Shown here: piece after piece, positions 3,917 through 51,852 of the stretch
How the letters are laid out: each line of letters begins with the position of its first letter
Position numbering within the stretch: position 1 is the first letter of the stretch
From: an uncultured Candidatus Saccharibacteria bacterium
Lineage (GTDB): Bacteria; Patescibacteriota; Minisyncoccia; UBA9983
NCBI GenBank assembly: GCA_964372755.1
Contig: CAYJQX010000004.1
Coordinates: 10,766-74,765, forward strand
DNA: 64,000 nucleotides
Direction of reading: 5' to 3'
Made by a program: the position numbers and the translations under genes
Notes under the pieces: model-generated
Databases searched by the model: none
Told to the model about the DNA's origin: nothing
Seen by the model: only the letters and a program-made list of their open reading frames with translations

Positions 3917-4010
3917 GTTTCGAAAAAGAAGGGTTTCTGAAAATTTAGAAAAATCGTCAACATTATGGCGATTTTTTGATTTTTGGCTATAATAAAAGAG
4001 GCTAAAATAT

Positions 4011-4081
4011 GGGGGTTTAGTTAAGTGGTACCCGCCCGACTGAATGATCTCTAAGGCTTTAGTCGTTCGGGCGGGTAACGG
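4011..4081 (+). other. tRNA-like 5' fragment (pseudo-tRNA-Trp leader) interrupted by a GC-rich hairpin. It is not a foldable tRNA.
   Basis: gggggtttagttaagtggta (4011-4030) resembles the 5' acceptor/D region of the downstream tRNA-Trp (gggggtgtaggcttaacggtaa). An 8-bp stem cccgcccg/cgggcggg (4031-4038 and 4068-4075) follows. Then taacgg resumes the D-loop. No 3' acceptor partner exists. A TATAAT lies at 3988-3993. Confidence 0.4.
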
Positions 4082-4128
4082 CGGTCTCCGAACTTAGAAA
4101 TGAGTGAGTGATAGTTTTTAAAAAAAAT

Positions 4129-4203
4129 GGGGGTGTAGGCTTAACGGTAAACTGCCTCTCTCCAAAAGAGGATTTTCAGGTTCGAGTCCTGGCACCCCCG
4201 CCA
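4129..4203 (+). tRNA. tRNA-Trp (anticodon CCA), with the 3' CCA encoded
   Basis: The acceptor gggggtg/caccccc is 7 bp. The anticodon stem is cctct/agagg with loop ctCCAaa. The T-arm is tcagg-ttcgagt-cctgg. The sequence ends in a discriminator g plus CCA. Confidence 0.8.
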
Positions 4204-6237: not shown

Positions 6238-7596
6238 ATAAGTCTGGAGATACCCCCAAGTGTGGAGCCTATCGCTATCATATGACCACTTGGCGCCAAT
6301 ATCGGTGCGATAGAGCATGTTTGGGATGACAATATTTTTGACTTTGGCGTAAACGCTTTTGCGGGCGTCCTCCACCGTGGTGCCGGTGTCGGCTACAACC
6401 ATCAAAACTCCCGATTGGCCGGCGATGCGCATAGTGCCATTATCGTACCAGACATCTTCTATGTGGATGCCTTCGTAGTCGGGATCATGTTTTTTAAAAA
6501 CAATAGCCAAATCTTTATAAACCTGAATAAGATCGCTGTTGCCTCCCGATTTGGCGAAATATGATGGCACCAAAATACGCACGCCTATCTGGAAGCCTTT
6601 TTTTGTTTTGAGCTCAAAATTTTCCCCTGAAGCCAGTTTGTAGAGCCATTCGCCGGCAGGCATGGAAATACCTTCTTGCTGTATTTGGATAGTCGGATAA
6701 CCGAAACGGGATGTCCATTCAAGAGGATAAATGCCTTTGCCGTTTACGATGCAGTTGATGTCTATATAGCCCACATATCCGGATTCGCGAAGAGCCGGAA
6801 GAGCTTTTTCTAAGGTGGCCTTAAAAATATTATTGGGTCTGCTCCAATACATCAGAGTGCCCATCTCGCCTGTCATCGGGCCGATTTCACCGGCAAAAAT
6901 TCTTTTGTGTTCGAAGTTGATGTTTATAGGGTAGATAAAATCATAGCCGTTGAAAAAAGCGCCGACGCCGATTTCCACGCCCGAGATAAATTTTTGAAGA
7001 ATAAATTTGGAAACCTTTTTTTCCCAGACATTTTTGTTTTGTTCAAAGAGCTCAATCATCTCCTTGCCGTCCTCGTCTTCACCGATAAAGAAAAGACCGC
7101 TTCCGCCCGGAGGGGTGAGACCGCTTGGTTTAAAAACATAACGGCCCGGATTGTCGCGGATAAAATTTATGGCTTCATTGTAGCTTTCGAAATTTTGATA
7201 GGGCAGAACATTGACCCCCAGTTTTTTTAACTCTGATTGGCCAAAATCTCTGTCGGCCTCCAAGCGATCGGTATAGACGCTTCCACCCACGACCTTCTTG
7301 CCTTTTTTTCGGAGCTTGTCGGCGATCTCGCCGAATTCAATATCGTCAAAAACAATCACATCGGCCCAATCCGCGTGTGATTCCCAATTGTCCACTTTTT
7401 GCACGAAGCCGTTATACACATCGGCATCGTCTTTGTTTTTTATATAAACTTTAACTTCGTTTCCTTCTTTTGCCACATGCCATGCCAAATCCCCACTTAA
7501 CGATTCCCACGAGACGAAAAGGAATTTTTTTGGCGCAGAAGGGCTTTTTCCGCCGTTGCCGTTTTCCTCCAGAGAAGCGCCGTTGCCGTTTGCCAT
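6235..7596 (-). CDS. PurD-family ATP-grasp protein (phosphoribosylamine--glycine ligase-like) with a divergent N-terminal motif and a low-complexity N-terminal tail
   Basis: The protein aligns by eye with E. coli PurD. EHKRIFAGEIGPMTGEMG corresponds to DHKRVGDKDTGPNTGGMG. IDINCIVNGKGIYPLEWTSRFGYP corresponds to [22 protein letters not shown]. The conserved N-terminal SGGREH is replaced by WESLSGD. The first 25 aa (MANGNGASLEENGNGGKSPSAPKK) are low-complexity. Confidence 0.7.
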   Translation of the reverse strand: MANGNGASLEENGNGGKSPSAPKKFLFVSWESLSGDLAWHVAKEGNEVKVYIKNKDDADVYNGFVQKVDNWESHADWADVIVFDDIEFGEIADKLRKKGKKVVGGSVYTDRLEADRDFGQSELKKLGVNVLPYQNFESYNEAINFIRDNPGRYVFKPSGLTPPGGSGLFFIGEDEDGKEMIELFEQNKNVWEKKVSKFILQKFISGVEIGVGAFFNGYDFIYPININFEHKRIFAGEIGPMTGEMGTLMYWSRPNNIFKATLEKALPALRESGYVGYIDINCIVNGKGIYPLEWTSRFGYPTIQIQQEGISMPAGEWLYKLASGENFELKTKKGFQIGVRILVPSYFAKSGGNSDLIQVYKDLAIVFKKHDPDYEGIHIEDVWYDNGTMRIAGQSGVLMVVADTGTTVEDARKSVYAKVKNIVIPNMLYRTDIGAKWSYDSDRLHTWGYLQTY

Positions 7597-17987: not shown

Positions 17988-18791
17988 TTATTTTCTAATT
18001 TCTGCCACCACAGCCATATGATCGCTTACCCCGTCTTTAATCCCCACATTTTCCACGATATATTTCGAAGTGGAGAAAAGAACATCAACCACGTATTGTA
18101 AATCTCCGGCACGATGGAGGTTTTTATCTATAGTTGTGGTAATTTCTGGGGGAATATTGTCTTTATAATTTGAAGCTAAAAGGTTGAAGATCTCTCGTCC
18201 GCGCGGAGCGTTCATGTCTCCGCACAAAATAATTTCTGGATATTTCTTGAGACAGTGAAGTAATGTAGCAATATCTCTCCTTTGCCAATCATCTATGTGA
18301 CCCTCGTGGGTCCAAGTGAAATGAGTGTTGGCTACAGAGAATTTTTTGCCGTTTTTTTCTATCACGCAAACAAGGAGCATCCTGTTGTAGGAACCAGGAT
18401 CTTCTTTGTTGAAATCAGGGACAAATTTTTCTGTGCCGTTGTAATAATGCACCTCATCTGAAAAAGGATACTTGGAAATGGTGGCAATGCCAGAGACTAC
18501 TTTTTGGGTGTATCCTCCAAAACTAGGCAAAACTCTGGTCATTGGAACATATTTTCCTCGCATTTCCATTTCTGACAAAAACAAAGGGAAATCTTCCTCC
18601 AGGATTTCTTGCAAGCAAACCACGTCCGGACCCTCTCTTTTTAAAAATTTCAATACGCGATCTATGTGTCGGTGTTTTTCAATGTTTACGGAAATAAGTT
18701 TGAGTGGCGGGTTGGTTAACACAAGAATTTGATTATAACGAACATCTCTGTTTGTTTCATCGATTATAACGAATATCTCTGTTTTCCTCAA
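17988..18791 (-). CDS. Endonuclease/exonuclease/phosphatase (EEP, DNase I-like) family protein
   Basis: The EEP fold is indicated by VVCLQEI...GDMNA...SDH-type motifs across 267 aa. Confidence 0.75.
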   Translation of the reverse strand: MRKTEIFVIIDETNRDVRYNQILVLTNPPLKLISVNIEKHRHIDRVLKFLKREGPDVVCLQEILEEDFPLFLSEMEMRGKYVPMTRVLPSFGGYTQKVVSGIATISKYPFSDEVHYYNGTEKFVPDFNKEDPGSYNRMLLVCVIEKNGKKFSVANTHFTWTHEGHIDDWQRRDIATLLHCLKKYPEIILCGDMNAPRGREIFNLLASNYKDNIPPEITTTIDKNLHRAGDLQYVVDVLFSTSKYIVENVGIKDGVSDHMAVVAEIRK

Positions 18792-18811
18792 TCTCTTTCA
18801 GTGCTCATCTT

Positions 18812-18851
18812 CCAGTGAGTAATTCTGACATATGTCAGAATTACTCACTGG
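18812..18851. promoter_or_regulatory. Perfect 40-bp palindrome (20-bp arms, no spacer) about 20 bp upstream of the EEP gene start. It is a candidate operator.
   Basis: ccagtgagtaattctgacat is followed by its exact reverse complement atgtcagaattactcactgg. Confidence 0.4.
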
Positions 18852-18998
18852 GGGTTTGGAGAAATATTTTAATAAATGCCGATTCTTGGAATAATTTCTG
18901 GAATAATTTACCATCAGTCTTCTTATGTGGTAGTGTAAAAAAGAGCTCTGCCTCGGATATTTTGTCGGGTAAGTTATGATAGAGCCTTTTAAAGAAAT

Positions 18999-19034
18999 TG
19001 GGGGATCGCCTGCCTGCGCAGGCAGGTCCAATGG
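18999..19034 (+). other. Pseudo-tRNA-Gln 5' leader: a copy of tRNA-Gln nt 1-10 plus an 18-nt GC palindrome plus the D-loop continuation
   Basis: tgggggatcg is identical to the first 10 nt of the tRNA-Gln 23 nt downstream. The palindrome cctgcctgc/gcaggcagg follows. Then tccaatgg matches the tRNA's tctaatgg. Confidence 0.4.
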
Positions 19035-19056
19035 ATGAATTTTAGATGTTTTTTTT

Positions 19057-19127
19057 TGGGGGATCGTCTAATGGTAGGACAGAGGCCTTTGAAGCCTTTA
19101 ATCGGGGTCCGAATCCCTGTCCCCCAG
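19057..19127 (+). tRNA. tRNA-Gln (anticodon TTG)
   Basis: The acceptor is tggggga/tccccca. The D-arm is gtct-aatggta-ggac. The anticodon stem is gaggc/gcctt with loop ctTTGaa. The T-arm is cgggg-tccgaat-ccctg and the discriminator is g. Confidence 0.85.
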
Positions 19128-19200
19128 AATTGGTTGGAAGTTAAAAATTAGTCGCCTCATCGGCGACCCGTTGAAGGGGTGGAGATAGGCGACATTATTT

Positions 19201-19527
19201 ATGTATAAAGGCACAATCATTGAGAATAGTTTAATTAATGGGAATATTATCGATAAGCTGAAAATCGAGAAGACTTGGTTGTCTGGGAGTTGGGTACTTC
19301 ATAATGTTTTAGTTACAGAGGAGCAAATTCCTCAACTATCAGAGTATTTAGCCGACGGTCCCTGGTATATACATTTATGGGAAGAGGGAAAGGATGGCAT
19401 AAAAGTAATTTTTAAAAATAAAATATTTGATATTAAATCTTCAGATAAATCCACATGGGTTGAAGCTGTAGCTTACGGTAAATCAATTGATATACCAGAA
19501 GAGCAACTAGATTTTCCTATAAATTAA
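19201..19527 (+). CDS. Hypothetical protein (108 aa)
   Basis: An ORF with SD-like ggagat upstream. No recognisable family. Confidence 0.45.
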   Translation: MYKGTIIENSLINGNIIDKLKIEKTWLSGSWVLHNVLVTEEQIPQLSEYLADGPWYIHLWEEGKDGIKVIFKNKIFDIKSSDKSTWVEAVAYGKSIDIPEEQLDFPIN

Positions 19528-19537
19528 ACCACAAAAA

Positions 19538-20137
19538 ATGATTGAAGTTGAGAAAAAATTTATACTCACCGAAGAAAGCAAGACTTTTCTCATAGAGGGT
19601 GCTGAGTTTATTAATGAACGGGTTTTTACTGATATTTATTATGACAATGAAGATTTCTCTCTAACTACCAAAGATATTTGGTTGCGTGCTAGGGAGGGAA
19701 AATGGGAATTGAAGATACCGCTCCAAAATTTGGGGGATCGGGTAGCAGACCAATATGAGGAGATTCAAGATGAGAATGAGATAAGGAAAGTGCTTAAAAT
19801 ATCTGAATCGGGAGACTTTCCTTTAGTTTTGGAGAAAAGCGGGTACTTGCCTTTTTGCGTATGCAAGACAACACGCAGAAAATATAAAAAAGAATCTTTT
19901 ACCATTGATCTGGATACTGTTGAATTCAAGGATTTCAATTACAATATTGCGGAGATTGAATTGATGGTAAACGATAAGTCAGAGGTGGGGGAGGCAGTGA
20001 AGAGAATTTTAGATTTTGCTAAAAATAAAAATTTAACAAATGTGCCAGTTAGGGGTAAGGTTGTTGAATACCTCAAAAGAGTGAAGCCAAATCACTACCA
20101 AGCCCTAGTTGAGGCTCGAGTAGTAAATGATTTTTAA
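19538..20137 (+). CDS. CYTH-domain protein (triphosphate tunnel metalloenzyme family)
   Basis: The N-terminal EVEKKF is the EXEXK motif. Alternating acidic beta-strand residues follow over about 199 aa. Confidence 0.7.
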   Translation: MIEVEKKFILTEESKTFLIEGAEFINERVFTDIYYDNEDFSLTTKDIWLRAREGKWELKIPLQNLGDRVADQYEEIQDENEIRKVLKISESGDFPLVLEKSGYLPFCVCKTTRRKYKKESFTIDLDTVEFKDFNYNIAEIELMVNDKSEVGEAVKRILDFAKNKNLTNVPVRGKVVEYLKRVKPNHYQALVEARVVNDF

Positions 20138-51420: not shown

Positions 51421-51476
51421 AATATTTTGTTTTTAAAATACTTTTTTCCAAAATCGTTCTTGAAATATTTTTCACG

Positions 51477-51525
51477 ACCGTTACCCGCCCGCGCGTACTC
51501 GGAAGCAGGCGGGGACGATAGGGCC
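51477..51525 (-). other. Pseudo-tRNA-Glu 5' leader: a copy of tRNA-Glu nt 1-12 plus a GC-rich hairpin plus the D-loop continuation
   Basis: On the minus strand, ggccctatcgtc is identical to the tRNA 5' end. The hairpin cccgcctgc...gcgggcggg follows. Then taacggt matches the tRNA D-loop. It lies 56 nt upstream of the tRNA. Confidence 0.4.
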
Positions 51526-51852
51526 AATGATTCATTAATCTGCTCAAAATGAGCATAGCAAAATAAACCCCTCCGCTCAATAATTAAGAGCCTCCCATAA
51601 AACAAAATAACTCCGCGTTCCTTATGTTTTAAAAAGGAAAACTAGGGGTTTGACTTATTCTCTGCTATTGCAGATAATCTAGGGTAGAGATGGATTTTAT
51701 AGGTTTACTGGTGGCGGTTGTTAGGAGGAAATACCCCCGTTTCCTTTTGTTCCTTATTTTATCATCAGTTGTATATTGTTTGCTTTTGGCGACGCCAGCT
51801 GATGACCTGCCGATTTAATAAGGAGTCTTTTTGAACTTCCGCCACCTTTTCT

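Follow-up and report, generated by a model that had tools for sequence, protein, structure and literature searches.

Just upstream of the tRNA-Gln gene of the window, by which we mean the whole 64-kb stretch of DNA analyzed here, lies a short module that is likely to be the relic of a tRNA-nested element, composed of a GIY-YIG nuclease gene and a GC-rich palindrome, which has lost its open reading frame (ORF) and is now carried in the tRNA-Gln leader. On this reading the module is a retained piece of tRNA 5′ end, adjoining a place occupied by a mobile nuclease gene. The left copy of the tRNA follows the acceptor 5′ strand as far as G10, is interrupted by the palindrome, and resumes for eight nucleotides before a spacer that leads to the real gene:

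18975–18980, + strand: –10-like hexamer TATGAT, the probable promoter of a unit comprising the 5′ copy, the hairpin, and tRNA-Gln
18999–19008, + strand: copy of tRNA-Gln nt 1–10, the retained left copy (TGGGGGATCG), with 10/10 identity to 19057–19066
19009–19026, no strand assigned: perfect GC palindrome of 18 nt, CCTGCCTGCGCAGGCAGG, made of two 9-nt arms, CCTGCCTGC and GCAGGCAGG
19027–19034, + strand: resumption of the left copy, D-stem/D-loop nt 11–18, TCCAATGG versus TCTAATGG in the tRNA, with one mismatch
19035–19056, + strand: spacer of 22 nt between the module and tRNA-Gln, with a T-run at its end
19057–19127, + strand: intact tRNA-Gln (UUG) without encoded CCA (Rfam RF00005, 60.3 bits; 19056–19128 according to ARAGORN)

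The original prediction had described this layout, and its details are confirmed: the exact copy of the first ten nucleotides of tRNA-Gln, the perfect 18-nt palindrome that follows, the one-base difference where the copy resumes, the distance of 22 nt to the tRNA, and the T-run in front of it. Chance is no explanation for the module. Even with up to three mismatches allowed, the palindrome occurs once in the window, where 0.01 occurrences are expected, and the 10-mer TGGGGGATCG has three exact occurrences, in the module, in tRNA-Gln, and at 19731, the last being within coding sequence, without a hairpin, and taken as chance. An Rfam scan of the window returned five tRNAs only and no family for the module or the palindrome at the gathering threshold. 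We considered and rejected an intrinsic terminator as the function of the hairpin: the T-run begins 22 nt past the stem, and a terminator scan of 18600–19300 was silent there. A separate GC hairpin at 19150–19168, just 3′ of tRNA-Gln, has a T-run on the minus strand only, and its terminator score accordingly applies to the opposite direction. After this hairpin comes cccgTTGAAgggg, with a loose likeness to the Gln anticodon arm.

The window contains three modules in which a tRNA 5′ copy is joined to a GC hairpin, at tRNA-Trp, tRNA-Gln, and tRNA-Glu, and none was found at its tRNA-Tyr and tRNA-Leu genes. The earlier view of the Gln module as the second instance of a recurring pattern, which came with no mechanism, thus holds, with a third instance at tRNA-Glu. 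The module is not a pseudo-tRNA if that term means an entire gene that has decayed; only a 5′ piece is retained. The two siblings are built as follows:

51422–51526, – strand: Glu module, beginning with a copy of nt 1–13 at 51526–51514 (13/13 identical) and a GC hairpin of 30 nt at 51513–51484
51483–51477, – strand: continuation of the Glu module with TAACGGT, equal to nt 14–20, then at 51476–51423 a remnant of the GIY-YIG C terminus (REKYFKNDFGKKYFKNKI)
4011–4128, + strand: Trp module, with a diverged 5′ copy at 4011–4029, a hairpin at 4030–4076, and a spacer reaching to the tRNA at 4129

A TATAAT hexamer is found at 3988–3993, 17 nt upstream of the Trp 5′ copy. For the arm motif CCYGCCYG the window has 11 occurrences where 3.5 would be expected; 6 of the 11 are arms of the three modules. 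A dispersed repeat of the REP or MITE type was rejected as an explanation, there being only three copies in 64 kb, each inside a tRNA 5′ copy; among the relatives described below, one stray palindrome copy outside a tRNA was seen, in locus L123.

Loci of the same build were found with a pattern for the tRNA-Gln 5′ end, searched in one genome per species. The pattern was too general, with many unrelated phyla among the matches listed, and about 40 low-GC loci among these matches were usable (38 plus the window were tabulated), many of them labelled Patescibacteria. A hairpin-split tRNA-Gln 5′ copy stands shortly upstream of the intact gene in L006, L007, L038, L075, L082, and L105. The closest match among the loci listed is L038 (tggagtatcg-CCTGCCTACACCGGCAGGCAGG-tctaatggtggga), in which the hairpin comes after G10, as it does in L124, L153, and the window; TCTAATG(G) directly follows the hairpin in L038, L124, L153, and L183, and the tRNA-Gln(CUG) locus L124 reads tgccggatcg, then the hairpin, then tctaatgatATG. 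In L015, L098, and L067, the gap between the split copy and tRNA-Gln is occupied by a small ORF with a GIY-YIG signature, and the same ORF-bearing architecture is present at tRNA-Gln in L124 and L153 and at tRNA-Asn in L121. The module is absent from most of the Patescibacteria tRNA-Gln loci sampled. ORFs of the UPF0213 type of GIY-YIG protein also lie 100–150 nt downstream of tRNA-Gln in L009, L014, and L081, a set that includes non-Patescibacteria (an Enterousia MAG and a GC-rich proteobacterium), and in L014 a tRNA fragment (GTGTCGTC) separates tRNA-Gln from the ORF.

A metagenome scan with the alignment of the GIY-YIG protein returned at least 547 relatives, and the best 80 loci were analyzed. 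A same-strand tRNA lies within 200 nt downstream of the ORF in 63 of these 80, mostly at 3–50 nt, and two more of the 80 contigs end too early to show one. The downstream tRNAs in the best 80 loci represent 13 amino-acid isotypes plus one tRNA with a TTA anticodon. By an automatic test 49 of 61 loci (drawn from the best 80 of at least 547) have the first nine tRNA bases copied upstream of the ORF, and in most of the remaining loci a diverged copy is visible by eye. Left copies usually begin exactly at tRNA +1, are broken after nt 7–13 or nt 18–23 (twice in the anticodon loop), resume for a stretch of 5–17 bases ahead of the ATG of the ORF, and collect mismatches; the palindrome sits in the D-arm and rarely in the anticodon loop. 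The order of an intact element is promoter, tRNA 5′ copy, GC palindrome, 5–17 tRNA bases, 78-aa GIY-YIG ORF, 3–50 nt, and complete tRNA. We did not find this tRNA-nested architecture of GIY-YIG gene and palindrome described in the literature searched. The TTA-anticodon tRNA, which lies 33 nt past the ORF in L198 and is labelled "tRNA-Stop" by ARAGORN, could be a suppressor or reflect a reassigned UAA codon.

The palindromes of these loci form a GC-rich family of 36–60 nt with the outer pattern CCYGCCYGC...GCRGGCRGG, and their consensus is an imperfect palindrome, CCCGCCCGCC-A-CGCAAGCC-nn-GCTTGCG-nAGGCG-TT-GCGGGCGGG. Where position 7 is a T, an A stands three bases from the 3′ end, and a CCTGCC/GGCAGG helix is thereby preserved in a shifted register, so that pairing is maintained. 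A covariance model, R1, was built from the metagenomic palindromes only, and in about 67 of the 80 loci (manual count; best 80 of at least 547 relatives) an R1 match closely precedes the ORF, which links palindrome and ORF. Relative to the ORF and the tRNA both orientations of the palindrome occur, at 30:14 among classifiable cases, and the position, length, and orientation of the hairpin vary freely among loci. When the palindromes from six related loci were searched against Rfam, nothing was returned, even with E values as high as 1 admitted.

In an unfiltered search of the window, R1 ranked the three modules first: Glu with an E value of 0.008, Trp (4031–4075) with 0.015, and Gln with 0.078 (17.3 bits), the next match having an E value of 4.5. 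The Gln palindrome matches only through its 9-nt arms, the interior being missing; comparison with R1 places it as the outer arms of the 36–60-nt family palindrome. No intact GIY-YIG ORF was found in the 64-kb window with a motif regular expression, a three-sequence hidden Markov model (HMM), or a profile of 45 GIY-YIG homologues searched against 3,664 six-frame fragments. The sole significant match of the profile in the window is in the Glu spacer (E value 0.0011), where NGREKYFKNDFGKKYFKNKILA corresponds to profile positions 60–81, the C terminus; this remnant was detected by the 45-sequence profile and missed by the other two methods. The Glu module evidently once held the ORF. The Trp spacer ("SFGR...") and the Gln spacer gave no significant protein match to the profile. 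The Gln spacer, ATGAATTTTAGATGTTTT, aligns over a short segment with the ORF start, ATGTTTTATTACAC..ATGTT, of the Gln elements L153, L124, and L183, which is suggestive only; it may be the decayed 5′ end of a lost GIY-YIG ORF fused to the tRNA.

The Gln locus thus has a copy that starts at +1 and ends in the D-arm, a palindrome (arms only) that interrupts the copy and is followed by its next bases, and a same-strand tRNA within about 200 nt, and it is a relic rather than an intact member of the family because its 22-nt spacer holds no ORF. At this locus the case for ORF loss draws on the architecture, on a weak alignment of the spacer, and on the Glu module as a sibling. The nuclease gene would have been almost wholly deleted and the palindrome cut down to its outer arms, and 18999–19056 would now be carried as part of a pre-tRNA-Gln 5′ leader of about 70 nt that is probably neutral or slightly costly. 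Several observations speak against the relic reading: the window holds no intact GIY-YIG ORF, the Gln spacer yields no significant protein remnant, a perfect GC palindrome in a genome of 39% GC could signify recent origin or selection, the 18-nt palindrome meets the family through its arms only (17 bits), and family palindromes are also seen with no ORF beside them.

It is unlikely, as we judge it, that a nuclease gene was never present at this locus, the hairpin being an independent palindromic mobile or recombinogenic sequence that inserted into a duplicated tRNA-Gln 5′ fragment; in a variant of this explanation the module arose without an ORF, for example by gene conversion from another module. 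Family palindromes do occur without an adjoining ORF, at L123 962–1041 and as downstream copies in L196 and L186, and the second module of L183 has a spacer of 13 nt; palindromes occupy other loop positions of tRNAs as well, namely the anticodon loop in L140 and, within the 3′ copies that lie downstream in L196 and L186, the D-loop and T-loop. The occurrence of both orientations (30:14), the nested or doubled palindromes of L152, L153, and L196, and the lack of a significant ORF remnant in the Gln spacer point the same way. Against an independent hairpin, all three palindromes of the window are inside tRNA 5′ copies and one of the three is accompanied by an ORF remnant, the sequence after the Gln hairpin aligns with the ORF start of its relatives, and in the metagenomic loci (about 67 of the best 80 of at least 547) the palindrome stands just upstream of the ORF. 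The stray copy at L123 962–1041 is a nested family palindrome that lies away from tRNA genes, where an HD-domain gene ends, and in L123 the arms CCCGCCCGCC and GGCGGGCAGGGG flank the GIY-YIG ORF instead of preceding it.

The genes of the window near tRNA-Gln encode DprA, SerRS, FtsQ, DnaX, an Exo_endo_phos protein, a CYTH protein, Ham1, and an HAD hydrolase. This gene set, a GC content of about 39%, tRNAs without encoded CCA, and SerRS relatives named Patescibacteria or Candidatus Tagabacteria identify the window as chromosomal DNA of an ultra-small bacterium of the Patescibacteria (CPR) and not of a phage. For the 108-aa ORF adjoining tRNA-Gln, no identical protein is on record. The order DprA-SerRS-FtsQ-DnaX-Exo(–)-tRNA-Gln is kept in L210, whose DnaX is 65% identical to that of the window, and the approximately 190 nt before tRNA-Gln in L210 are AT-rich, with neither a 5′ copy nor a GC hairpin. 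The Gln module is therefore dispensable and lineage specific, and the orthologous site is polymorphic for its presence in a comparison that is between species (L210, DnaX 65%) rather than within a population. The closest relative, L209 (DnaX 75% identical), has TATGATAG where the window has TATGAT, and its sequence stops just before the tRNA; in the SerRS-anchored loci L206–L208 synteny is lost past FtsQ, so that tRNA-Gln is not reached. The window has a perfect 40-nt palindrome at 18812–18851 (CCAGTGAGTAATTCTGACAT/ATGTCAGAATTACTCACTGG), in the interval that separates the divergent Exo_endo_phos gene from the tRNA-Gln promoter, and L209 has a perfect palindrome of other sequence in the same place (2728–2775). 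This points to a structure that is conserved and that might serve as an operator or a bidirectional terminator. Two direct repeats at 18728–18785 (tgattataacgaaCatctctgttt and tgattataacgaaTatctctgttt), each promoter-like on the minus strand, coincide with the start of the Exo_endo_phos ORF or immediately precede it.

Transcription of the module probably starts upstream of it. The original prediction had raised an overlap of the palindrome with the tRNA-Gln promoter, which is not supported: the interval from the module to the tRNA accommodates no sigma-70-like pair of hexamers, spaced 16–18 nt apart, that would start transcription at or just before 19057, and neither a consensus scan nor a relaxed –10 search detected a promoter-like site on the + strand of 18999–19056. 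The relaxed –10 search places TATGAT 18 nt upstream of the Gln 5′ copy, and there is no matching –35 element because the consensus scan gives no complete two-hexamer site on the + strand. In L126, L134, L143, L151, and L161, a near-consensus TTGACn-17-TATAAT lies 10–30 nt upstream of the left copy, and only the final codons of the ORF (...AGA ATA TAA) precede the right-hand tRNA in the metagenomic loci. Because promoters lie upstream of the copy and none lies between module and tRNA, the Gln module is probably a transcribed leader rather than a promoter. The simplest reading would be a single transcription unit of promoter, split 5′ copy, ORF, and tRNA, in which the nuclease mRNA and the tRNA may be made from one upstream promoter and RNase P would free the tRNA. 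Transcription from the tRNA promoter together with an intact downstream tRNA would mean that the element borrows a strong promoter while sparing an essential single-copy gene.

Nearest-neighbor folding of 18988–19130, which ignores tertiary structure and folding order, gives –52.3 kcal/mol for a structure in which the leader copy pairs with the 3′ acceptor strand and –49.1 kcal/mol for the native one, which hints at a possible cost if the leader copy out-competes the real 5′ strand. The same energies, with a module that is probably cotranscribed and a palindrome that is perfect, speak for a functional element of the pre-tRNA-Gln leader, in which the copied acceptor strand would compete with the real 5′ strand for the 3′ acceptor strand and the hairpin would tune folding, RNase P processing, or stability, tRNA-Gln output being regulated in this way. 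We regard such a function as improbable. The module is absent from the syntenic L210 and from most Patescibacteria tRNA-Gln loci sampled, its hairpin is freely variable in position, length, and orientation, left copies gather mismatches, and the architecture is accounted for by the neighboring selfish ORF of the relatives; the folding model, moreover, is one without tRNA tertiary structure or cotranscriptional order.

The product of the family's ORF is a single-domain GIY-YIG protein of 78 aa (Pfam PF01541, precomputed). In the family alignment Y16, G18, R26, H30, and E62 of the GIY-YIG core are invariant and Y5 is nearly so. By profile comparison the nearest solved structures are UPF0213 proteins (1zg2, E value 3.5e-11; 1ywl, 6e-9), followed by SLX1 (1e-3), with I-TevI distant, and NCBIfam gives a subthreshold match to a group I intron endonuclease model. 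A protein of 78 aa has no room for a separate DNA-reading domain. The tight linkage of palindrome and ORF, the free orientation of the palindrome, and the presence of palindromes at other tRNA loops make it plausible that the predicted nuclease acts structure-specifically on the palindrome. Alternatively, the palindrome might simply disable the retained copy, which would then be safe both from being cut and from an exchange with the real tRNA in which the ORF would be lost.

We propose, tentatively and with rather less confidence than for the relic itself, that these loci represent an undescribed class of tRNA-parasitic mobile element in Patescibacteria, the following parts being taken jointly. 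A structure-specific GIY-YIG nuclease of 78 aa would be paired with a GC palindrome that it recognizes or deposits. The element would insert at loop-coding positions of tRNA genes and restore the tRNA through a duplication of the 5′ portion that begins at +1. It would be expressed from the tRNA promoter within the pre-tRNA, with RNase P splitting the parasite mRNA from the host tRNA. The three modules of the window would be fossils, and the elements would be a main driver of rearrangement at the tRNA loci of these reduced genomes, including tandem pseudo-tRNA arrays and split copies. Spread may proceed by nuclease-induced breakage and recombinational repair, in which the palindrome would be either the structure on which the nuclease acts or an insertion that guards the 5′ copy from cutting or from recombination with the real tRNA. 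A difficulty for a homing model is that, if the enzyme recognizes tRNA-gene sequence, the intact right-hand tRNA should remain a target.

The closest known kind is that of free-standing GIY-YIG endonuclease genes associated with tRNA genes, and the element itself was not found described in the literature searched. SegB of phages T4 and T6, a free-standing GIY-YIG homing endonuclease, recognizes a conserved motif of tRNA genes, the T-psi-C stem-loop (PMC2330249), and SegB homologues are significantly colocated with tRNAs of many isotypes, while SegB drives the segmental amplification of tRNA-containing segments (PMC13096335). The element resembles SegB in having a GIY-YIG gene among tRNA genes, and the tandem arrays in L031, L140, and L174 are comparable to SegB amplification. 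SegB is, however, a phage protein with a DNA-binding part, and its gene, which lies between tRNA genes, is accompanied neither by a retained tRNA 5′ copy nor by a palindrome, whereas the element is chromosomal in Patescibacteria, lies between a hairpin-split 5′ copy and an intact tRNA, and encodes a 78-aa protein with a catalytic domain only that is nearest to UPF0213 and SLX1. Proteins of the UPF0213/YhbQ type and SLX1 are the best structural matches, are of similar small size, and likewise have no separate DNA-reading domain. By analogy, a structure-specific nuclease beside a conserved DNA palindrome would be a natural pairing. The UPF0213 group is held to consist of cellular proteins, whose role is uncertain, and not of mobile genes, and we know of no association of them with split tRNA copies or palindromes.

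In fungal mitochondria, homing-endonuclease ORFs carry a duplicate of the part of the gene that they invade, as in the atp6 element of Allomyces, and partial duplications of this kind are mentioned in mitogenome papers. The likeness is that a GIY-YIG ORF lies in or beside an essential gene whose function is kept by partial duplication, a displaced fragment being left behind; the mitochondrial cases differ in that they concern organelle protein-coding genes with a duplicated 3′ end, whereas here a bacterial tRNA is duplicated at its 5′ end from +1, with a palindrome inside the copy. Double-hairpin elements and the GC clusters of yeast mtDNA provide examples of GC-rich palindromes that spread in an AT-rich reduced genome. 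tRNA genes are also classic integration sites, and partial tRNA copies are the usual trace. A partial copy next to an intact gene is what integrase att duplications look like, and some non-Patescibacteria loci do carry 3′ fragments with CCA of the att kind, but an attL/attR-type scar of a lost tyrosine-integrase element (prophage or island) using tRNA-Gln is highly improbable here, as the 5′ rather than the 3′ end is duplicated, the distance from copy to gene is in the tens of nucleotides (58 nt) and nothing lies in that interval, an integrase is absent from the vicinity (the neighbors encode DnaX, Exo_endo_phos, CYTH, and Ham1 proteins), and the hairpin family, the GIY-YIG ORF of the relatives, and the ORF remnant tie the module to the GIY-YIG element. 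Three further candidates were dropped: a BHB-type intron or a tRNA that is split or permuted, the organism being bacterial and the intact tRNA present; a retroviral-type primer-binding site, as the copy includes nt 8–10, for which the 3′ end of the tRNA has no complement; and a T-box-like sensor.

The Gln module, as a probable fossil, is of modest interest in itself, and the family is of considerable interest. For annotation, it accounts for puzzling recurrent pieces of tRNA 5′ ends with GC hairpins in Patescibacteria, which pipelines ignore and which may break assemblies, and in scale it goes with a small nuclease gene that is very abundant, having at least 547 relatives. If the proposal is true, it describes a selfish gene that uses a tRNA promoter and RNase P for its expression while an essential single-copy gene is kept intact, and a minimal pair of nuclease and palindrome that is open to biochemical testing.

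Apparent signs of repeated recombination are common at these tRNA loci. In L031, at 6354–6743, 3.7 tandem copies of a 106-nt pseudo-tRNA-Val unit stand directly before the real tRNA-Val within a cluster of 11 tRNAs, and L140 has ORF-tRNA repeats. About 30–150 nt past tRNA-Met in L174, there are three tandem mimics of the tRNA 3′ end, each consisting of AAGGTCG, the hairpin tcccgagccactcggga, and CTGCTGACAC. Downstream 3′ tRNA copies are present in L038, L075, L105, L186, and L196; the left copy derives from a different allele or tRNA type than the right-hand gene in L194, L196, and L129; and the duplication reaches 5–22 nt upstream of +1 in L007, L015, L124, and L142. The units of L031 are each interrupted by two hairpins of another type (TCCCG...CGGGA), a type shared with the L174 hairpin. 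Downstream of tRNA-Gln in the Saccharibacteria loci L105, L117, and L038 are broken second copies of tRNA-Gln that have a conserved T-loop insertion of 75–150 nt (..gagcgcacttagt..gggtgac, followed by CGAATCC) as well as other insertions. Inverted repeats of 10–18 nt occur in the leader and trailer of the intact tRNA in L105, L152, and L186 (for example, AACTCCTTCACC and GGTGAAGGAGTT in L186), and these would form a stem that encloses the tRNA in its precursor.
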